Assembly: GCF_016717175.1 (NCBI RefSeq)
Contig: NZ_JADKFZ010000004.1
Strand: one strand, 5' to 3'
Length of the DNA: 64,000 nucleotides
Source: Nannocystis sp.
Lineage (GTDB): Bacteria > Myxococcota_A > Polyangia > Nannocystales > Nannocystaceae
Shown here in pieces: positions 21,699 to 57,795 of the stretch (the first letter of the stretch is position 1; the number at the start of each line of letters is the position of its first letter). The position numbers were made by a program, and so were the translations under genes. The notes beneath the pieces were generated by a model, which was not told the origin of the DNA, did not search any database, and saw only the letters and a list, made by a program, of their open reading frames with translations.

Positions 21699-23558
21699 TC
21701 AGCCGATGCCGTAGTCCTTGAGCTTGCGATAGAGCGTGGTGCGATCAATGCCGAGGAGGGCCGCGGCACGGGCCTTGTTGCCGCCGGTGGCCGACAGCGC
21801 CGCGACGATCGCCTCACGCTCGAGCTCCGCGAGCGGCCGCACCACGGCGTTGGCGTCGGTCAGCGTCGGACCCAGGGGAGCGGCGTGCAGCAGCTCGGGC
21901 GGCAGGTCGTCCTGCTCGAGCACCGGCCCGTCGCCGAGGACCAGCGCCCGCTCGATGACGTTGCGCAGCTCGCGGACGTTGCCCGGCCAGCGGTAGCGAC
22001 AGAGCACCTCGAGCGCCGCCGGGGCGATCTGCTCGACGCGCCGGGCGACCCGCTCGCCGATCGTTCGCAGGAAGTGCTGCGCGAGCAGGGGGATGTCGTC
22101 CCGACGCTCCCGCAGCGGCGGCAGCTGCGTCTGGATCACGCTCAGGCGGTACAGCAGGTCCTCGCGGAAGCGGCCCTCGCTGACGAGCTGCCGCAGGTCG
22201 CGGTGGGTCGCGGCGACCAGGCGGACGTCGACCGTGATCTCCCGGGTGCCGCCGACGCGGGTGAGGGTCCGGTTCTCGAGCACCCGCAGCATGCGAGCCT
22301 GGGCGCCAGGGCTGAGCTCGCCGACCTCGTCCATGAACAGGGTGCCCGTGTGGGCCCGCGCGAAGACCCCGTCGTGCTGGGTCACCGCCCCCGTGAAGGC
22401 GCCCTTCTCGTGGCCGAACAGCTCGCTCTCGAGGAGCGACTCGGCGATCGCGGCGCAGTTGATGGCGACGAAGGGCCGGCTCGCGCGCGGGGACAGGCCG
22501 TGGACCATCCCGGCCGCGAGCTCCTTACCCGTGCCGCTCTCGCCGAGCAGGAGCACGCTCGAAGTGGTGCTGGCGACCCGCTCGAGGAAAACCTGGAGGC
22601 GCTGGATCGCCGGGGAGTGGCCGATCATCTCGCCGTGCGCGGCGGCCGGCCCGTGGCGGACCGCGGCGCTCAGCTGCTGGCGCTCGCGCGCGCTGTCGCC
22701 GATCGCCCCGATCAGCTGCGCCGCGCAGACCAACAGGCGCAGTGCCTCGTCGTCGTAGGTGCAGCGCAGCGCCTCCCGCGGGCCCCACTCGACGTAGAAG
22801 ATCAGGCTCTCGACCGGAGCCGCCATCGCCCCGAGGATCCCGCGCATCTGCACCGATCGACGGTCCGCGAGGTCGGGCTCGGCGAGCACGTCGTGCAGCA
22901 ACACGCCGCGGCGCTCCCGGAGCACCCGCGCCAGCAGGGCAGGGGACAGGGCCAGGTCGGGCAGAGGACCCGTGCTCGCGGCGCTCAGGATGTCGCTGCC
23001 GTCCGGGCTCAGCAGCAAGGCGCGGGCGGCCGGCAGCGCATCGACGGCCCATGAAGTCGCGGCCCGCAGCACCGCCGGCAGCGAGCCGCAGCGGGCCAGC
23101 TTGTCACCGAGAGCCGCCAGCGCGGCCAGTCGACTCGCCCCGGGCGTCGCGCTGAGGACTCCGGTCGCGTCGAGCTCGACCGCCCGCGTCGGCGCCTGCG
23201 GCGGGCTCGTGGCCTCGCTCGCGGGGCGGCTGGTGGCGATCACCAGCGTGCTGTTGCCGACCGTCAGCGCGGCCCCAGGCGCGAGCAGCTGGCCCGGCTT
23301 CAACGCCACCCGCTGTCCGGCCTCGAGGGTCCACACCGGGTTCACGCCGGGGATCTCGAGCACGCGCAGGCCCGTGGCCTCGGCCTGCACACTGAGGTGA
23401 TGGCGCGACACTGCCCCGTCGCTGAGCTGCAGGCCCTCGCCCGCGCCGCGCCCGATCGTCAGGGGCTCCGCGCCGAGCGAGATCTGTCGCCCCTTGTCGG
23501 GCCCGGATTGTACGGTGATCAGCAGCGGACGCACGCGCGGCGAGTGTACACCGGTCAT
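21699..23558 (-). CDS. sigma-54-dependent transcriptional regulator with N-terminal FHA domain
   Basis: FHA fold ([17 protein letters not shown]...VSRHHLSV); AAA+ sigma-54 activator domain ([15 protein letters not shown]); Fis HTH. Confidence 0.9.
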
Positions 23559-23652
23559 GACACGCGCCGGATCCGCCTGCCCGGACGTGCAGGACGGCAC
23601 CTCCACGCCAGGTTGACAGCCCGGTGACGGATGTTAGGGTTCCGCCACTTCT

Positions 23653-48220: not shown

Positions 48221-49453
48221 TCAGGGCGTGCAGGCCACGGACGCGACCGTGAGGTCGTCGACGCTCCAGCCGGCGAAGTCCGGCGCGCCCGCGACGCGCT
48301 CGACGCACACGCGCACGCGGAAGTTCTTGGCCTGATTGCCGCTCGCGTCGAACTTCACGAAGGTCCAGTCGGCGTCGTCGCTCAGCTGGTCGTAGCCGGT
48401 CTCGAGGTTCTTCCAGCTCGCGCCGTTCCACACGTCGATCGTGTGGATCACCTTGGGCAGGGCGGGCGCGTGGAGGTGACGCCAGAAGCTGACCCACAGC
48501 GAGCCCTTGACCTTGCTGGTGTCGATCGGCGGCGAGCTGATGCATGCGACGTCGTGGCCGTCGTCGGCGTCGAGGCCACCGACCGCGGTGCCGGCGAGCA
48601 TGCCGTCGGCGCCCGGCGAGTGATCGTCGGCCGGGTCAGCGCCGCCGACCCCAGCCGGCGAGGCCTGGGCCTTGGCGAAGTCCCACAGCTTGTCCTGCTC
48701 CCAGCCGGGGGCCGGCGCCGTGAAGTCCTCGAAGAACAGCGCGCCCGCCTCGCTGGTCGTGCAGCTGCCGGCCTTGCAGGTCGACACCACGGTGCAGCTG
48801 TCGCCGTCGTCGCAGTCGCTGCCGTCCTTCAGGTCGGCGGCCAGGCAGGCGCCGCTGTTCGGGTCGCACTGGCCGAGCGTGCACGCCGAGTCGAAGCCGG
48901 AGCAGTCGACCTGCTCGAGCGGGGCGCAGGCGCCGGCCTGGCAGCTCGAGCTCAGGCTGCACAGCGAGCCGTCGTCGCAGGCCTTGCCTTCGTTCGCCGG
49001 CGCCGCGACGCACTCGAAGCTCTGCAGGTCGCAGCTGCCGGCCGTACAGAGCCCGTCGAGTGACTCGCAGGCGCTGTCGTCGAGGCAGGCCGGGACCACA
49101 CACAGGCCCTGCGCGCAGGCCATGCTGGCGCAGTCCTTGCTGTCTTTGCAGCCATGTCCCACGGGACAGGCGTCGCAGGGGCCGCCGCAGTCGACGTCGC
49201 TCTCGCCCTGGTTCTGCTCGCCGTCGTCGCAGCTCGGCGGTGGCCCGCCGGAGCTGCTCGAGCTGACGGAGCCGACCGTGCTGGTCATGATCGGGCCGTC
49301 GTCGCTGCTCGTGCTCTCGGCGGGCTCGCCGGTGCTGGCCGCCCCGCCGTCGCCGCTGCTGCCATCGACGATCGGCGGCGGTGACAGGCACCCCGTCGTC
49401 GCCACCATGAAGATCGCTTGCGCGGCCCACCGCCGCACCCCACCCACCACCAT
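48221..49453 (-). CDS. lipoprotein with Myxococcus-type cysteine-rich repeats
   Basis: lipobox TTGC; at least 6 repeats of DGS-C-DDG-xC-x4-C-x-G-xC; start uncertain. Confidence 0.7.
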   Translation of the reverse strand: MVVGGVRRWAAQAIFMVATTGCLSPPPIVDGSSGDGGAASTGEPAESTSSDDGPIMTSTVGSVSSSSSGGPPPSCDDGEQNQGESDVDCGGPCDACPVGHGCKDSKDCASMACAQGLCVVPACLDDSACESLDGLCTAGSCDLQSFECVAAPANEGKACDDGSLCSLSSSCQAGACAPLEQVDCSGFDSACTLGQCDPNSGACLAADLKDGSDCDDGDSCTVVSTCKAGSCTTSEAGALFFEDFTAPAPGWEQDKLWDFAKAQASPAGVGGADPADDHSPGADGMLAGTAVGGLDADDGHDVACISSPPIDTSKVKGSLWVSFWRHLHAPALPKVIHTIDVWNGASWKNLETGYDQLSDDADWTFVKFDASGNQAKNFRVRVCVERVAGAPDFAGWSVDDLTVASVACTP

Positions 49454-49517
49454 GGGCTCCACGCTAACGGCCGCTCGCGCCGCGGACAAGCGCCGCGTAT
49501 GGCGCGTCGCACGGGCA

Positions 49518-51481: not shown

Positions 51482-52087
51482 TCAGCGCGCAGTGGCCGCG
51501 AGCAGCACGGCCTCGGCGTGGCCAGGCACCCGTACCGGCCGCCACAGCGCCTCGATGCGGCCATCGGCGCCGATCAGGAAGGTGCTGCGAACGATCCCCT
51601 CGAGCTTGCGGCCGTACATCAGCTTCTCGCCGTAGGCCCCGTAGCTGCGGGCCACCGCGTGGTCGAGGTCCGAGAGCAGCGGGAAGCCGAGGCCCTGCTT
51701 GTCGCGGAAGCGGGCGTGGGACTTGAGGTCGTCGCCGCTGACCCCGAGCACCGTCACGCCAGCCTTCGTGAAGGCCGCCTGGCGGTCGCGAAAGTCGCAG
51801 GCTTCCACGGTGCAGCCGGGGGTGCTGTCGCGCGGATAGAAGTAGAGCACCACTCGCTTGCCGCGCAGGGCGGCCAGCGAGTGCTCGCGGCCGTCGTCGC
51901 CGGGGAGGCTGAAGGCGGGCGCCAGATCGCCGAGGTGCGGGCTGGCCTTTGGTTCCTGTCCCGAAGGACTGGCTGGGTTCGCCGTGGGCGGGGCGGGCTG
52001 GGTCGCCGCCGACTTGGCGGCGGTCGTGGTGGACTTGGCGGGGCTGCGACCTGGCATGCGGGTGACCTCCGTGGTCTGCTCCTTCAT
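51482..52087 (-). CDS. bcp: thioredoxin-dependent peroxiredoxin Bcp with ~45-aa Ala/Pro/Thr-rich N-terminal extension
   Basis: GDLAPAFSL...VVLYFYPRDSTPGCTVEAC...GVS.D...FPLLSD core; extension contains in-frame palindromic element (51955-51972); 16 nt upstream of the HK gene. Confidence 0.85.
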   Translation of the reverse strand: MKEQTTEVTRMPGRSPAKSTTTAAKSAATQPAPPTANPASPSGQEPKASPHLGDLAPAFSLPGDDGREHSLAALRGKRVVLYFYPRDSTPGCTVEACDFRDRQAAFTKAGVTVLGVSGDDLKSHARFRDKQGLGFPLLSDLDHAVARSYGAYGEKLMYGRKLEGIVRSTFLIGADGRIEALWRPVRVPGHAEAVLLAATAR

Positions 52088-52222
52088 ACCTGCGGCCGCG
52101 CGGCGCGGGCAATCCCGGTGCGGCGTGGCGCTGCGGAGCGACGGTCCTCGGCGGCGAGTGCGGGGCAGATCTTCGGCCCCGAGGCGCGTTCAGGCCGGGG
52201 GGTGTCGGGCCCGCGTCGCCGG

Positions 52223-52280
52223 CATGGCCTGTCATGGCCTGTCATGGCCTGTCATGGCCTGTTATGGCCCCGCATGGTCC
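52223..52280. repeat. tandem repeat, 10-bp unit CATGGCCTGT x4.5 plus degenerate copies
   Basis: divergent intergenic region between bcp and the 52402 lipoprotein gene. Confidence 0.9.
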
Positions 52281-52401
52281 AGCCACGGGCCCGCCTGCGC
52301 CCCACCCACCGGTCACCGACCGCGAGCCGCGGCGGCATTGCTTTACACGCGCGGCGTGGCCCGGCTAAAGTCGGGCTCCTCTGGACGACAGGACACACGA
52401 C

Positions 52402-53193
52402 ATGATCGGTGGTTTGCGCTCTGCTCTCGGCGTTCTGGCGCTCGCGCTGCTCCTTCCCGGGCTCTCGGCCTGTGGCGGCGGAGATTCGAAGTCTCTCGCC
52501 GAGAAGATGGCGGGGGACCCCGAGGCCGAGGCCCTGGCGAAGGCCGGCTACAAGCCGAACCCCAAGCCGCGCCCGGAGGGCCTGCCGCCGCCGACCGACG
52601 CGGAGTTCAAGGCCTGGGACCGCAAGGACCCGGAGGGCGAGAAGCACCTCTACAAGTTCGACAAGGCCAACCTCACCAAGATGCTCAACTACTGGAAGGA
52701 GCTCGACTGCTTCCGCGAGAAGATGAAGAGCGAGGGCGACAAGGTGCTCGGGGCGGAGCCCGGCACTCCGCTCGAGGAGCAGTGGATCGTCTTCAAGCAG
52801 ATCTTCATCCCGATGGTGAACACCTGGCAGCAGCGGCTCCTGGCCACCGAGCCGCGCATCCTCGAGAAGTCCAAGCTCATCGGGCACTTCCTCGAGGCGC
52901 ACGAGCTGGTGATGAACGGCTGGCCCGACGCCTACAACAACAACGACAAGGTCGCGATCGCCACCGCGGACGCGCACTGGACCATCGTCGAGAACAAGAT
53001 CATCAAGTACCTGAAGAACATCAGCCAGGAGGAGCTGCCGAAGGACGACTTGACCGACCCCAAGGTCAAGGAGAAGCACGACAAGTTCTGCGCTGCGGCC
53101 CTGAACCCGCCGAAGAACACGGGCAAGGCCAAGATCAAGTACGTCGGCAAGGGCAGCGGCGGGGCCAAGAAGCTCAATATGGGCGACGACTGA
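52402..53193 (+). CDS. Lys-rich hypothetical lipoprotein
   Basis: signal peptide plus lipobox LSAC; unusually Lys/Asn-rich composition. Confidence 0.6.
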   Translation: MIGGLRSALGVLALALLLPGLSACGGGDSKSLAEKMAGDPEAEALAKAGYKPNPKPRPEGLPPPTDAEFKAWDRKDPEGEKHLYKFDKANLTKMLNYWKELDCFREKMKSEGDKVLGAEPGTPLEEQWIVFKQIFIPMVNTWQQRLLATEPRILEKSKLIGHFLEAHELVMNGWPDAYNNNDKVAIATADAHWTIVENKIIKYLKNISQEELPKDDLTDPKVKEKHDKFCAAALNPPKNTGKAKIKYVGKGSGGAKKLNMGDD

Positions 53194-53197
53194 TCCG

Positions 53198-53737
53198 ATG
53201 GCTCCGGCCAGCGAATCCGTCAGCTCCGCGTCTGCTGCGGGGAAGGGCCCAGTACAGGGCCCAGCGAAGGGGAGTGACCCGGCGCAGGCCGAGGCGCTGG
53301 CGACCGAGCTCTCGCACGACCTCATGTCGCCCTACTGCCCGGGACGGACGATCGCCACCTGCCCCTCGCCGCAGGCGCGCAAGCTCGAGAGCCACATCCT
53401 CGAGCAGGCCCAGCAAGGCAAGTCGCGCGTGGAGATCGAGGCGGCCCTGGCGGAGCGCTTCCCCGACATCCGCGGCTACATCGGCCGCCCGGAGATCATC
53501 TACGGCACTGCGCTTCTGGCCCTGATAGCGATCGTCGGCCTGGTCCTGGTCGGTCGCCGCTGGGTCCGTCAGACCCGCGCGCGGGCGGCCGTCGGGTCCG
53601 TGGGGGCCGTCGTCGGGGCCAGCGGGGCCCTGAGCACCGACCTGCCGGCCCCCGGTGGCCCTGGCGCGGCTGGCAAGCCCTCACGCAGCGAGGTCGACGC
53701 GCTGGACGACGCGCTCGATCGCATCGACGAGTTCTAA
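53198..53737 (+). CDS. CcmH/NrfF-family-like membrane protein (CxxC replaced by C-x7-C)
   Basis: LATELSHDLMSPYCPGRTIATCP...QQGKSRVEIEAALAERF then TM helix resembles CcmH N-domain; 4 nt after upstream stop. Confidence 0.35.
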   Translation: MAPASESVSSASAAGKGPVQGPAKGSDPAQAEALATELSHDLMSPYCPGRTIATCPSPQARKLESHILEQAQQGKSRVEIEAALAERFPDIRGYIGRPEIIYGTALLALIAIVGLVLVGRRWVRQTRARAAVGSVGAVVGASGALSTDLPAPGGPGAAGKPSRSEVDALDDALDRIDEF

Positions 53738-53766
53738 AGCTCGCGGGGCCAGGCGCTGTATTCGGC

Positions 53767-55515
53767 ATGGGGCCGCCTGCGCGCATCCCGCGGCGGCGAG
53801 CAGCCTTGAGTCGGCTCGCCCCTTCGGGGTACTCCTGGCGTGTGCTGACCGTAGTAGTCCATGAGAAGGGCGGCCAAACCCAGCGTTTCTCCTTCAAGGG
53901 CGACAGCTTCTCGATCGGCCGCGAGGATGACAACGACCTCGTGCTCGACCGGGTCAACGTGTCGAAGCACCACCTGCAGTTCGTCAAGGTCGATTCGCGC
54001 GTCGACGTCGTCGACCTCGAGAGCACCAACGGGACCTACCTCAACGGGCGCAAGGTGGCCGCGCCGCGGACCGTGCGGCGCACCGACCGGGTCTACGTGG
54101 GTGACTACATCCTCATGCTCGAGGGCGATGACGCGGTCCTCGCGGTCGCCAGTCGCGAGGGTGAGAAGCGGCGCGGCGGGACCTCGCCGGGCGCGCGCCC
54201 GGGCGAGCTCACGGCCGACGACACCGGCCTCGTGACCTCGGCGCAGCGCGTCGCCGCGGCGGGGATCGAGAGCAGCTACCTCGACGGCCTGGCCGCGCAG
54301 ATCCACCAGACCTTGCTCAAGGCGGTGCCGCGGCTCGACCCGCTGCAGGCCAACGACATCAGCGACGACGAGCGCAAGGAGGTCATCGAGATGGTCGACG
54401 GCGTGCTCGCCGACCTGCGCGACTCGCAGCAGATCGAGGCCACCGTCGACATCGGCCCGTTCCGCGAGCGGGTGCTCCGCGAGGCGCTCGAGTGGGGCCC
54501 GCTCGGCGACCTCATGCGCGACGACAGCGTGCGCGAGATCCAGGTGGTCGGCACCGGACCGCTGCACGTGATCCGCGACGGCGGCGTGCCGGACCGCCTC
54601 GAGCTGCGCTTCACCAGCGACGGCGCCCTCATGCGCGTGATCCAGCGGATGACCCGCAAGCGCGGCCTGCTCGCCGAGGGCTCGCACGTGCTCGAGGGGA
54701 CGATCGACCACGGCTTCTACCTCTACGCCCTGATCCCGCCGCACCCGGCGCGGCAGCTGGTGCTGAGCCTCCGGCGCATGCGCACCGACGCCAACAACCT
54801 GACCGCGCTGGTCCAGGAGGGCGTGCTGAGCCCGGACATGCGCGAGCTGCTGGTGCTGGTGCTGCGGGCCTGTCGACGCGTGCTGGTGTGCGCCTCGGGC
54901 GGGGTCAACCTCGACCGCTTCACCCGCGCGCTGATCGGCGAGATCCCGGACTCGCTGCGCGTCGCCTGCATCTCGGACTCGGGCCGCCTCGGCAACCGCA
55001 AGGGTTGGGTGCAGGTCCGTCGCCTCACCGAGGTCGGGGACAAGATCGACCTCCAGCACGTGCTCAACGTGCTGCTGCGCGGCGGCCTCGATCTGCTCAT
55101 CTCGCAGCAGTGCGGCCACAGCGACGCGGCCGCGGTGATCGACGCGCTGGCCGGGGCGAGCCGCGGCGCGGTGGTCTCGCTGTGGGGCATCAACACGGCG
55201 CACGCGCTGTCGCGGCTGGCCGCCCTCGGCACCGTCTCCGGCGGTGCGGCCCAGGGCCTGACCCTGTCGCTGGCGCACGCGATCGACCTGGTGGTCCGCC
55301 TCAACAGCGGGGTCAGCCTCGAGTCGATGCAGGTGATCGAGATCGTCGAGCCGAACACCCGCGCGGACGGCACGATCGAGTACCGCCCGCTGTTCGTCGC
55401 CGCCAAGGCCGAGGACGGCACCACGGAGTTCAGGAGCACGCCGCACGTGGCCGACTTCCTGCGCCGGCTCGCCGACCAGGGCGCCGAGGTCCCGCAGCGC
55501 CTGCGGAGCCTGTGA
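53767..55515 (+). CDS. FHA-domain protein with degenerate CpaF/VirB11-type secretion ATPase domain (Walker A/B lost)
   Basis: FHA motifs (FSIGREDDNDLVLD...SKHHLQF..STNGTYLNG); CpaF-like core (ALIPPH) but Walker A is ASGGVNLDRFT (no GKT) and Walker B/catalytic Glu region is LISQQCG. Confidence 0.7.
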   Translation: MGPPARIPRRRAALSRLAPSGYSWRVLTVVVHEKGGQTQRFSFKGDSFSIGREDDNDLVLDRVNVSKHHLQFVKVDSRVDVVDLESTNGTYLNGRKVAAPRTVRRTDRVYVGDYILMLEGDDAVLAVASREGEKRRGGTSPGARPGELTADDTGLVTSAQRVAAAGIESSYLDGLAAQIHQTLLKAVPRLDPLQANDISDDERKEVIEMVDGVLADLRDSQQIEATVDIGPFRERVLREALEWGPLGDLMRDDSVREIQVVGTGPLHVIRDGGVPDRLELRFTSDGALMRVIQRMTRKRGLLAEGSHVLEGTIDHGFYLYALIPPHPARQLVLSLRRMRTDANNLTALVQEGVLSPDMRELLVLVLRACRRVLVCASGGVNLDRFTRALIGEIPDSLRVACISDSGRLGNRKGWVQVRRLTEVGDKIDLQHVLNVLLRGGLDLLISQQCGHSDAAAVIDALAGASRGAVVSLWGINTAHALSRLAALGTVSGGAAQGLTLSLAHAIDLVVRLNSGVSLESMQVIEIVEPNTRADGTIEYRPLFVAAKAEDGTTEFRSTPHVADFLRRLADQGAEVPQRLRSL

Positions 55516-56237
55516 TGCCCGTCCTGTCACGCTTGCCGCGAACGTCGCTCGCTGGGGTCTCGCTGTTGCTCGCCTGCGCGAGCAAGCCCGCCGAGGGTGT
55601 GGGGGCCCCGGCCGCGCCGGCGACCGATCACCGGGCCCGTGGGCACCACAAGCACCACCGCTTCGACAACGCCGAGCAGTGGGCGGCCCAGTTCGACAAC
55701 CCGGCGCGCGACGCCTGGCAGCATCCGGAGGCGGTCGTCGCCGCCCTCGCGCTGGCCCCGGACGCGACGGTCGCCGACCTCGGGGCGGGCACCGGCTACT
55801 TCGCCGTGCGCCTGGCCCGGGCCGTCCCACGCGGCCGCGTCTACGCCGAGGACCTCGAGCCCGACATGGTCCGCTACCTCGGTGAGCGAGCGACCCGCGA
55901 GGGCCTCGGCAACCTCGTGGCAGTGCGCGGCGAGCCGGCCGATCCGCGGCTACCGGTGGTGGTCGACGCCGCGATCATGGTCGACACCTACCATCACGTC
56001 GACGATCCGGACCGCTTCTTCGCCGCGCTGCGCGAGCGCCTGCGCCCGGACGGCGCCCTGGTCATCGTCGACTTCAAGAAGGACGCGCCGGACGACGCCC
56101 CCGGGCCGCCCGCGGCGATGCGGATCGCCGACGAGGTGGTGGTCGCTCGCCTCGTCGCGCTCGGCTTCACGCACGTCCGCACCGACCGCGATCTGCTGCC
56201 CTACCAGTACCTGGTCCATCTGCGACGCGGACCTTGA
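55515..56237 (+). CDS. class I SAM-dependent methyltransferase lipoprotein
   Basis: lipobox LLAC; motif I VADLGAGTGYFAV; TGATG overlap with upstream gene. Confidence 0.8.
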   Translation: MPVLSRLPRTSLAGVSLLLACASKPAEGVGAPAAPATDHRARGHHKHHRFDNAEQWAAQFDNPARDAWQHPEAVVAALALAPDATVADLGAGTGYFAVRLARAVPRGRVYAEDLEPDMVRYLGERATREGLGNLVAVRGEPADPRLPVVVDAAIMVDTYHHVDDPDRFFAALRERLRPDGALVIVDFKKDAPDDAPGPPAAMRIADEVVVARLVALGFTHVRTDRDLLPYQYLVHLRRGP

Positions 56238-56256
56238 GCCCCACGTGGACCGCCGG

Positions 56257-56276
56257 CCATGGACTCGAGTCCATGG
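56257..56276. repeat. perfect 20-bp palindrome CCATGGACTCGAGTCCATGG
   Basis: read directly; intergenic after methyltransferase stop. Confidence 0.9.
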
Positions 56277-56349
56277 TCAGGCCCGGATCCCGCGAATTCG
56301 GCCCGCAGCGGCCTCGGCGGGCTGGCGCAGGACTTGCTGAGCGGAGCCC

Positions 56350-57795
56350 ATGACGCGCGCCCACCTGTGTCCTCTGCTCTGCCTCGCGCTCCTCCTGCCC
56401 GCCTGCGGCGACGACGGCAGCGACGAGACCCTGACCGGCTCGACCGCGGCCACCGAAGGCAACTCGAGCTCGCCCACGAGCGGACCGACGCCGACCAGCG
56501 GCGACACCGGCGAGCCGGCGAGTCGGCCCAACTGGCACGAGGACATCGCGCCGGTGGTGGCCGAGCACTGCGGCAGCTGTCACTACGACGGCGGCATTGC
56601 GCCGTTTAGCATGGCGAGCTACGAGGGCGTGAAGCCGTGGGCGCCGGCGATGGCGGCCGACGTCGAGATGGGCATCATGCCGCCGTGGCACGCCCTCGAG
56701 ACCGACGAGTGCACGCCGCCCTTCGCGTTCAAGCACGACGCGCGCCTGAGCGACGATCTCAAGGCGCTGATCAGCGAGTGGTCGGCCAACGGCGCGCCGG
56801 AGGGCGACCCCAAGCTGGCCGCGCCGATCCCCGACGCGCCCTCGCTCGACCTGGTGGGCGCGAACAAGACGGCGTTGATGCAGTCGGAGCTGACGGTGCC
56901 GGCAGCGGGCCAGGTCCGCGACTACTTCAACTGCCTGAGCATCGACCCCGGCAACGCCGGCACCGTGTACCTCGACGGCATCCAGGTCATCGCGGGCAAC
57001 CGCTCGATCGTGCATCACGTGCTGATCTACGTCGACACCAAGGGCGACTCGGCGAAGTGGCCGGGCGGCGTCAAGATGGACTGCGGCGGCGGACCGGGCG
57101 GCGTCGCCGGGGCGCAGTTGGTCGCTGGCTGGGTCCCGGGCGGCATGCCGATCGAGCCGCCGGCCGACGTGGGCACCGAGCTGCCGCCCGGCACGCGCCT
57201 GATCATGAACGTGCACTACCACGCCGCCGCGGCGGCGCAGAAGGACTCGAAGACCGGGCTGGCGCTGCGCTGGAAGGACACGGCCCCGGCGTGGTCGTCG
57301 CTGTTCGTGCTGGTCGGCGACCCCGGCGTCGGCACCTCGCTCGACGGCCCGCTGATGATCCCCGCCGGCGAGAAGGACCACGTCGAGGAGTACTCGTGGA
57401 AGGTCAGCTTCAACGGCAAGGACTTCCCCGACCTCGTCGACGTGCGCCTGTGGGCCGCGCTCAACCACATGCATAAGGTCGGCGTCGACCTCAAGGTGTG
57501 GATCGAGGACCGCGACACCGGCGACGCGACCTGCCTGCTGCAGACGCCGAAGTGGGACTTCAACTGGCAGCGCTCCTATGCCTACGACACGCCGATCGAG
57601 AGCGGCTTCCGCGTCCGCTCCGGCGACACGGTGCGGGTCCGTTGCACCTACGACAACACCCTCGACAACCCCGGGGTCCAGGAGATGCTCGCCGAGGTCG
57701 GCGGCAAGGAGCCGGTCGACGTGGTCCTGGGCGAGGGTACGCTCAACGAGATGTGCATCACCGGCCTCGGCGTAGCGATCAAGGGCGGCCTGTAG
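56350..57795 (+). CDS. lipoprotein with c-type haem motif (CGSCH) and copper type-II monooxygenase-like His clusters
   Basis: lipobox LPAC; CxxCH at N-domain; HHVLIY / NVHYH / NHMH motifs in PHM/DBH-like spacing. Confidence 0.55.
   Translation: MTRAHLCPLLCLALLLPACGDDGSDETLTGSTAATEGNSSSPTSGPTPTSGDTGEPASRPNWHEDIAPVVAEHCGSCHYDGGIAPFSMASYEGVKPWAPAMAADVEMGIMPPWHALETDECTPPFAFKHDARLSDDLKALISEWSANGAPEGDPKLAAPIPDAPSLDLVGANKTALMQSELTVPAAGQVRDYFNCLSIDPGNAGTVYLDGIQVIAGNRSIVHHVLIYVDTKGDSAKWPGGVKMDCGGGPGGVAGAQLVAGWVPGGMPIEPPADVGTELPPGTRLIMNVHYHAAAAAQKDSKTGLALRWKDTAPAWSSLFVLVGDPGVGTSLDGPLMIPAGEKDHVEEYSWKVSFNGKDFPDLVDVRLWAALNHMHKVGVDLKVWIEDRDTGDATCLLQTPKWDFNWQRSYAYDTPIESGFRVRSGDTVRVRCTYDNTLDNPGVQEMLAEVGGKEPVDVVLGEGTLNEMCITGLGVAIKGGL

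Follow-up and report, generated by a model that had tools for sequence, protein, structure and literature searches.

The third of four consecutive plus-strand genes at positions 52402-56237 of a 64,000-nucleotide stretch of Nannocystis sp. DNA (contig NZ_JADKFZ010000004.1; the whole of this stretch, about 72% GC, is referred to here as the window) encodes a protein, g3, that joins an FHA domain to a body with the fold of the secretion ATPase CpaF. The ATP site of this body has lost its catalytic residues, and we consider that g3 most likely neither binds nor hydrolyses ATP, because the residues of the site are replaced by a different set that is invariant in the family. With the two preceding genes, which encode a lysine-rich lipoprotein (g1) and a degenerate CcmH-like membrane protein (g2), g3 forms a conserved unit that is specific to the order Nannocystales. 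Judged by their motifs, two of the three proteins of this unit are degenerate versions of well-known enzymes. The features of g3 on which this account rests are listed below, and residue numbers in g3 follow throughout the open reading frame that begins at ATG 53767.

53842-55515, plus strand: g3, FHA and CpaF-like pseudo-ATPase, 557 aa from its GTG start codon (the longest open reading frame begins at ATG 53767)
53911-54102, plus strand: FHA domain (PF00498), residues 49-112, Pfam E-value 4.1e-14
54892-54921, plus strand: degenerate Walker A, ASGGVNLDRF for CpaF S-GGTGSGKTT-L, from the alignment to CpaF 9e24 and 140 relatives
55087-55116, plus strand: degenerate Walker B and catalytic Glu region, LDLLISQQCG for CpaF PERIIVGEVRG

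That the body of g3 has the CpaF/secretion-ATPase fold, as had been proposed in a preliminary description of this DNA made from the sequence alone, is borne out both by profile and by structure comparison. In a phmmer search of the PDB, g3 residues 194-511 aligned with CpaF of Caulobacter crescentus (1.7e-10), and a profile built from 15 members of the g3 family matched CpaF 9e24 at 6.5e-18 over CpaF residues 95-454. An AlphaFold2 model of g3 (mean predicted local distance difference test score 71, disordered only at residues 1-24, 126-168 and 420-426) had CpaF 9e24_A as its best PDB match in Foldseek (E 3.5e-25, template modelling score 0.62), followed by FlaI, archaeal GspE, HP0525 and PilT/PilU/DotB. 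The body comprises a three-helix bundle, an N-terminal domain and a RecA-like domain. By curated models g3 stays below threshold, with 12.9 bits against the 24.9 required by Pfam T2SSE (PF00437; E 0.042) and 74.9 bits against a cutoff of 373 for NCBIfam TIGR03819 TadA.

The catalytic site was mapped by alignment to CpaF 9e24, with residue roles taken from the structural study of that protein (PMC12019362), and gives the following correspondences.

CpaF K287 and T288 (Walker A): g3 L382 and D383, or R384 beside a two-residue gap
CpaF E312 (Asp box, Mg2+): g3 R407
CpaF E357 (Walker B): g3 Q448
CpaF R217 and R223 (Arg fingers of the N-terminal domain): g3 T312 and Y318
CpaF His-box His: g3 W473
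CpaF R347 (trans Arg finger): g3 R438, the sole Arg finger retained

The register of the Walker A region is ambiguous, in that two alignments place K287 on L382 and another places it on R384 with a gap of two residues; in either register the Lys and Thr of the motif are absent and an Asp lies in the phosphate-binding loop. The central claim of the preliminary description, that g3 combines an FHA domain with a CpaF-like body whose P-loop has lost its GKT residues and whose Walker B and catalytic Glu region reads LISQQCG, is thus upheld by the alignments. An intact P-loop displaced to another part of the protein was considered and rejected, as a regular-expression search over the full length of g3 turned up no [AG]xxxxGK[ST], GK[ST] or GxxGxG string.

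Has g3 simply decayed? We reject this explanation. The replacement residues show family-wide invariance, which argues for a conserved pseudo-ATPase: A376, S377, G378, N381, L382, D383, R384 and F385 do not vary, nor do S446 and Q447, while position 448 is Q or R, and among 15 diverse members (53-85% identity) the motifs ASGGVNLDRF, SQQ/SQR and SLWGI are invariant or nearly so. The synteny of the gene is kept order-wide. In addition, comparison of the CpaF-like domain with the nearest loci gives ratios of nonsynonymous to synonymous substitution rates (dN/dS) of 0.22-0.28, and hence below 0.3; they were calculated by the NG86 method, which underestimates dS at the roughly 95% GC of third codon positions found here, so that these values are if anything inflated. 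Since the substituted motifs are invariant and dN/dS is low, the CpaF-like domain is, as far as its conservation can tell, under selection for some function that is not ATP hydrolysis.

The FHA domain is by comparison intact. It scores 53.2 bits against a Pfam threshold of 20.7, its phosphothreonine-binding residues G51, R52, S66, H69, N88 and G89 (the GR, SxxH and NG motifs) are invariant, and the nearest solved FHA domains, with the family profile as query, are those of GarA and OdhI (about 1e-11); the assignment made in the preliminary description therefore stands. T157 in the linker of g3 is likewise invariant and is a candidate ligand of the FHA domain, and is to be taken as a candidate only. 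Another FHA-type phospho-reader is encoded elsewhere in the window (21699-23633, minus strand), namely an enhancer-binding protein of the sigma-54 type whose N-terminal domain is FHA-like (Yop-YscD_cpl).

A word-indexed protein search returned 312 homologs of g3, the named ones from Nannocystis, Enhygromyxa, Pseudenhygromyxa and Paraliomyxa, with the source labels 'TadA', 'CpaF' and 'FHA domain protein'. When the C-terminal 393 residues were searched with HMMER against 1.84 billion representatives, only about a dozen family members fell below 1e-30, and beyond the family the scores drop to generic CpaF-like proteins of 22-31% identity. The most distant member, P0126 (38% identity, 'GNMSVDLERF' at the Walker A position), also has a CcmH gene before it. 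The next relatives include active FHA-T2SSE proteins (P0145, P0153, P0156, P0159), and many of the CpaF-like relatives carry other degenerations of Walker A or B, for example GSGRT or GADLGT. Among the proteins retrieved were also single polypeptides with two or three complete tandem CpaF-like ATPase domains and an intact GGTGSGKT in each (P0132, P0133 with 1156 aa, P0134 with 1605 aa, P0260 and P0261).

A genome scan found 60 orthologous loci, all of them in Nannocystales or in unclassified metagenome-assembled genomes (MAGs) of Myxococcota or 'Deltaproteobacteria'. g1, g2 and g3 are adjacent in 56 of the 60, and three of the four exceptions are truncated at contig ends. It is this trio that relatives keep, and not the order of four genes whose conservation the preliminary description had put forward for checking. 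The remaining genes and sites of the locus are as follows.

52402-53193, plus strand: g1, Lys-rich periplasmic lipoprotein, 263 aa, a four- or five-helix bundle with a basic C-terminal tail
53198-53737, plus strand: g2, degenerate CcmH-fold single-pass membrane protein, 179 aa, Pfam CcmH E-value 3.2e-10
55515-56237, plus strand: g4, class I S-adenosylmethionine (SAM)-dependent methyltransferase with a lipoprotein-like N-terminus, 240 aa, Methyltransf_25 E-value 7e-14
53806-53841, plus strand: bipartite promoter-like motif 5' of g3, TTGAGT (53806-53811), an 18-nt spacer, TACTCC (53830-53835), 6 nt and then the GTG
52342-52371, plus strand: sigma-70-like promoter match TTTACA-18-TAAAGT, 30 nt 5' of g1, a consensus match only
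52223-52269, no strand assigned: perfect 10-bp tandem repeat CATGGCCTGT, 4.7 copies, in the divergent intergenic region between the peroxiredoxin gene and g1 (Tandem Repeats Finder score 87)
51482-52087, minus strand: Bcp-type peroxiredoxin, divergent neighbour of the module, Pfam AhpC-TSA E-value 2.5e-39

g2 passes the Pfam threshold for CcmH (PF03918; 39.9 bits against 25), is 100% identical to a Nannocystis sp. protein named CcmH by NCBI, and has 276 homologs, every one of which carries the Pfam CcmH domain. A g2 profile matches the solved CcmH 2HL7 at 7.8e-6, with LRCPKC of the latter aligned to LMSPYC and ADS to ATC. The preliminary description was thus right in calling g2 CcmH-like and overlooked its degeneracy. 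In place of LRCxxC g2 has LMSPYC, which is invariant in 16 homologs, so that the first catalytic Cys is lost, and a new invariant Cys follows seven residues after the retained one. Little or no variation is seen in the motif DLMSPYCPGRTI..C and in the C-terminal tail. By hydropathy no N-terminal hydrophobic segment that could serve as a signal peptide was found, and a single transmembrane segment lies within residues 95-124. The 15 residues on its C-terminal side carry a charge of +3 (+5 with the two Arg that close the segment) as opposed to 0 on the N-terminal side. Hydropathy and flanking charges together predict that g2 is probably oriented N-out/C-in, with the CcmH-like domain in the periplasm and the tail in the cytoplasm. 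This tail ends in an acidic helix of nearly invariant sequence, S-x-x-E-[IV]-D-A-L-D-D-A-L-D-R-[IV]-D-E-F (here …EIDALDDALDRVDEF). TPR domains recognize acidic C-termini, and the end of g2 (…VDEF-COOH), encoded beside a conserved TPR protein, resembles such a terminus.

g1 is, by its lipobox and invariant Cys, a lipoprotein whose lipidation is predicted, and it was described correctly as Lys-rich from the outset. The lipobox LSAC occupies residues 21-24 within the hydrophobic stretch of residues 1-27, Cys24 is invariant among 31 homologs, and two further Cys (C103 and C230) are invariant as well. Lys makes up 12.9% of the protein and Arg 2.3%, which is striking for a GC-rich genome. A Pfam scan of g1 gave no match.

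The preliminary description had presented the genes as a tightly coupled four-gene operon with gaps of 4, 29 and -1 nt. The coupling within the pairs g1-g2 (4 nt) and g3-g4 (a one-base overlap, TGATG) is confirmed, and the gap of 29 nt was measured to the longest open reading frame of g3 (53767-55515). Conservation of the g3 family begins at (M/V)LTVVVHEKGG, and the corresponding GTG of most related loci is preceded at a distance of 12 nt by an in-frame TAA, which in most loci includes the TA of the upstream motif; for these two reasons GTG 53842 is almost certainly the true start, which gives a protein of 557 aa and widens the g2-g3 gap to 104 nt. As this gap carries a conserved promoter-like motif, the notion of one tightly coupled operon is overstated. 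The motif follows the consensus cTTGnn - 17/18 nt - TA(A/C/G)nnn - 6/7 nt - GTG in 57 distinct upstream sequences from across the order, and its TA keeps a constant distance of 12-13 nt from the start codon of g3. It is also present where g2 is inverted between g1 and g3, an arrangement found in 10 loci of Enhygromyxa, Plesiocystis and related MAGs (L012, L014, L015, L017, L018, L019, L022, L047, L056 and L059) and confirmed as a clean open reading frame in E. salina (L014 5475-5915, minus strand). In these 10 loci g3 must be transcribed on its own, because g2 is on the opposite strand. The fixed distance to the start codon, together with the lack of room for a Shine-Dalgarno sequence, suggests that the motif is a dedicated promoter of g3 that would give rise to a leaderless or near-leaderless mRNA.

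Upstream of g1, TTTACA-18-TAAAGT is the sole promoter-like match to its consensus in 52000-56500, where shuffled sequences lead one to expect 0.1; no terminator-like sites were found on the plus strand inside the four-gene cluster. The CATGGCCTGT repeat further upstream, with four overlapping 17-mer matches against 0.03 expected, was considered as a conserved operator and rejected; it is absent from all 80 related loci compared and is therefore strain-specific. The peroxiredoxin gene beyond it stands upstream of g1 in the opposite orientation in about 37-40 related loci, and the gap between the two genes varies between about 0.2 and 1.8 kb. The neighbouring peroxiredoxin of Enhygromyxa salina DSM 15201 (L014 2744-4558, minus strand) carries an N-terminal extension of ~400 residues with AAKKK/ASKKK repeats that is histone H1-like.

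On the downstream side a ~390-aa protein with weak TPR matches is encoded in about 49 loci, mostly immediately adjacent to g3, and further on follow genes for an FHA and double-zinc-ribbon protein in 35 loci and for a PP2C phosphatase in 26. The order of this block is the TPR gene, two unannotated opposite-strand genes (~630 and ~390 aa), the FHA-zinc-ribbon gene and the PP2C gene (L082 11744-17817, L081 12272-21003). In Pseudenhygromyxa a Ser/Thr kinase gene is inserted between g3 and the TPR gene, and in our window two Ser/Thr kinases are encoded 4-11 kb upstream. In most lineages the module thus sits in a neighbourhood rich in phospho-signalling genes. Upstream of the block lie genes for a yfgM-like TPR protein and a bamB-like pyrroloquinoline quinone-type propeller, and der.

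The preliminary description had further suggested that g3 serves a Tad-like or T2SS-like machine. About 34 open reading frames of the window were scanned with Pfam; they encode housekeeping proteins, Ser/Thr kinases, a histidine kinase and similar proteins, and no tad, cpa or gsp components were identified among them, nor were there any in the 10 kb to either side of the g3 orthologues in L081 and L082, the two whose flanks carry Pfam annotation; this part of the proposal finds no backing at the locus. A Cys-rich, secreted or lipoprotein-like open reading frame of 422 aa with no Pfam match (48221-49489, minus strand) stands beside the histidine kinase, also in L001 and L046.

g4 was rightly recognized as a SAM methyltransferase with the features of a lipoprotein: it scores 52.7 bits against Methyltransf_25 (threshold 27), contains the SAM motif DLGAGTG and a plausible lipobox, LLLAC, and reached no specific NCBIfam family. 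A homolog of g4 follows g3 only in L001 and L046, the two closest relatives. It is thus a lineage-specific addition outside the conserved module, translationally coupled to g3 here, and its inclusion as a member of the system, which had been taken as an unusual combination, is not supported. For the same reason there is no support for a core role of g4 as a conserved partner, for instance in methylating the Lys-rich g1, though such a role may apply in this lineage. A role of the locus in anti-phage defence was also considered and rejected, PADLOC being blank for g1-g3 and giving for g4 a generic methyltransferase-domain match, mad2. Directly after g4 (56350-57795, plus strand) lies a lipoprotein-like open reading frame with weak matches to both halves of a copper type II ascorbate-dependent monooxygenase (PHM/DBH-like).

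What, then, might a CpaF body without an ATP site be for? The reading that we favour, tentatively and at somewhat short of an even chance, is that g3 is an oligomeric platform without catalytic activity that is held at the inner membrane by the tail of g2 and gated by phosphothreonine through its FHA domain, with the periplasmic domain of g2 and the lipoprotein g1 forming the outward half of the system. On this model g3 would be expressed from its own promoter, on a leaderless or near-leaderless mRNA starting at GTG 53842, and would serve, in oligomeric form, for docking at the cytoplasmic side of the inner membrane. The FHA domain would tie the recruitment or conformation of g3 to phosphothreonine marks controlled by Ser/Thr kinases and PP2C. 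g2 would act as membrane anchor and transducer, its CcmH-fold domain devoid of the CXXC pair and retaining two invariant Cys, and this domain would meet the Lys-rich helix bundle of g1 in the periplasm. The acidic C-terminal helix of g2 would dock in the cytoplasm on g3, on the TPR protein or on both; that the tail of g2 may hold g3 is suggested by analogy with secretion ATPases, which dock on bitopic platform proteins. The phospho-dependent scaffold envisaged in the preliminary description is in this respect a reasonable reading, because the phosphothreonine-binding residues are invariant and because a PP2C phosphatase and a second FHA protein in most lineages, and a Ser/Thr kinase in one genus, are encoded nearby.

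Several points weigh against this platform model. The oligomerisation of g3, the topology of g2, every protein-protein contact and the signalling role are things that we infer. As g2 has no signal peptide, the periplasmic position of its ~95-residue N-terminal domain is argued solely from the positive-inside rule and the precedent of CcmH, and no conserved Thr that might serve as FHA ligand was found in its tail. R384 or the retained R438 could still provide some contact to a nucleotide or phosphate. The -10-like element upstream of g3 never has T at position 6, which leaves the promoter reading uncertain. Finally, the TPR, FHA-zinc-ribbon and PP2C neighbours are absent from the 64-kb window of the lineage studied here, and since the block adjoins housekeeping genes (the yfgM-like and bamB-like genes and der), part of the synteny may reflect passive inertia without functional linkage.

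Another possibility is that g3 acts in trans as a regulator or partner of a Tad/Kil machine encoded elsewhere, a 'pseudo-KilF' under phosphothreonine control, which would either co-assemble with an active FHA-CpaF motor and donate an Arg finger to it or compete with it for the membrane platform. The closest solved and profile relatives of g3 are indeed CpaF/TadA, active FHA-CpaF proteins are among its nearest relatives outside the family, and KilF, which drives the Kil apparatus of Myxococcus, has the same domain architecture (PMC8460266). Moreover, the sole catalytic-site residue kept in g3, R438, corresponds to CpaF R347, which acts in trans on the ATP of the neighbouring subunit (PMC12019362), and it is the survival of this one trans Arg finger that makes the idea attractive. 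Then again, the identity between g3 and CpaF is 20% only, neither the window nor the +/-10 kb around the two annotated orthologues contains tad, cpa or kil genes, and the genes conserved beside g3 instead encode a lipoprotein, a CcmH-like protein and a TPR protein. On this balance we regard the pseudo-KilF explanation as unlikely. That g3 is still an enzyme, turning over a nucleotide or another phosphorylated ligand in a remodelled pocket with the help of, for example, R384 and R438, appears very improbable. The RecA-like fold is preserved, the invariance of the substituted loop GGVNLDRF points to selection at the site, and one alignment puts an Arg at the position of the P-loop Lys. Against this, other residues stand in place of the Walker A Lys and Thr, the Asp-box and Walker B Glu, the His-box His and two of the Arg fingers, the phosphate-binding loop contains an Asp in either register, and in CpaF the single substitution K287A abolishes ATPase activity (PMC12019362).

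The degenerate CcmH domain raises the further question of whether the module belongs to a periplasmic thiol-redox system or to one that handles cytochrome or haem, with g2 acting through Cys47/Cys55, g1 as its partner or substrate, the peroxiredoxin linked to it, and g3 coupling the system to cytoplasmic signalling. The match of g2 to Pfam CcmH and to solved CcmH, the two invariant Cys of g2, the invariant C103 and C230 of g1 and the divergent Bcp-type peroxiredoxin gene in about 40 loci are all compatible with such a role. We nevertheless consider it distinctly improbable, as the first catalytic Cys is gone from LMSPYC, g2 lacks a signal peptide and reaches 32 bits with the NCBIfam NrfF model against a cutoff of 159, and neither the window nor the annotated flanks of L081 and L082 contain further ccm or nrf genes. 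Bcp peroxiredoxins are, besides, cytoplasmic proteins, and the spacing between the peroxiredoxin gene and g1 is variable. The membrane-held, phosphothreonine-gated platform also has a more far-reaching version, a trans-envelope device in which an ATP-free hexameric shell would be the phosphothreonine-gated hub, a redox-dead CcmH its anchor and g1 its outer part, and which would control an envelope or predation process, possibly Kil/Tad or outer-membrane biogenesis. In this extended form the proposal is doubtful; if true, it would make g3 the first described pseudo-enzyme of the PilT/VirB11 superfamily with dedicated partners of its own.

The family bears on annotation as well as on the evolution of secretion ATPases. 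The public labels 'Flp pilus assembly ATPase TadA/CpaF' for g3 and 'cytochrome c biogenesis protein CcmH' for g2 imply activities that the sequences do not support. A dead CpaF clade with its own set of partners is a tangible example of how pseudo-enzymes evolve within the secretion-ATPase superfamily, and it shows that the FHA-CpaF fusion, familiar from the Kil motor of Myxococcus, has found further use away from pilus loci. The FHA-CpaF fusion itself is already known, and the family is present in databases under misleading names. Full-text literature searches returned only papers on CpaF structure and on Kil and none on a catalytically dead CpaF clade; going by these searches, such a clade with dedicated partners is so far undescribed.

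Among known systems, the Tad motor CpaF/TadA of C. crescentus (PDB 9E24, 8RKD, 8RJF) is the closest to g3 in sequence and in structure. Both have the same three-helix bundle, N-terminal domain and RecA-like domain at about 20% identity; g3 differs in lacking Walker A, the Asp box, Walker B, the His box and two Arg fingers, in carrying its FHA domain where CpaF has a disordered N-terminus, and in having no tad or cpa neighbours. In domain architecture the counterpart is KilF (MXAN_3102-3108 cluster), a CpaF ATPase with a fused FHA domain that belongs to the Tad-like Kil predation apparatus of Myxococcus xanthus; it is described as the central hexameric ATPase of that apparatus, and its gene stands with those of the kil secretin, platform and pilins (PMC8460266). 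Going by the published description of KilF, g3 shares with it the N-terminal FHA and C-terminal CpaF-like domains, the myxobacterial origin and the FHA-rich setting, and differs from it in having neither catalytic motifs nor kil neighbours. g2 in turn shares with CcmH/NrfF of System I (PDB 2HL7, 2KW0) the helical fold region, the transmembrane helix that follows it and the …GKS..EI…VARF/Y… core, and departs from these proteins in having LMSPYC for LRCxxC, the new Cys at +7, no signal peptide and a long cytoplasmic tail with an acidic helix. An FHA scaffold that controls a secretion machine is provided by the Fha1/TagH-PpkA-PppA pathway of the Pseudomonas type VI secretion system (T6SS), as outlined in PMC8460266. 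The likeness lies in an FHA protein that goes together with kinase and PP2C genes and with envelope lipoprotein or periplasmic partners, and is one of analogy only: here T6SS genes are absent and the body attached to the FHA domain is that of a dead secretion ATPase.

Other degenerate FHA-CpaF-like proteins from metagenomes and Myxococcota (for example P0138, P0146, P0164 and P0186) likewise combine an FHA domain with a CpaF-like body of altered Walker A and/or Walker B. They differ from g3 in sequence (25-30% identity), in the substitutions they carry and in their neighbours, the gene of P0186 adjoining that of another FHA protein, and look like independent lineages. P0138 (L078 4706-9767, from a Polyangia MAG, with GSPGADLGT at Walker A) is encoded between BamA and TamB genes, directly after the former (POTRA/Omp85) and near the latter. 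Its position, taken with that of the Nannocystales block by a bamB-like gene, may reflect a recurring link to outer-membrane biogenesis or may be coincidence. The search of representatives suggests that degenerate FHA-CpaF-like proteins arose repeatedly, so that the phenomenon represented by g3 may extend beyond the Nannocystales.

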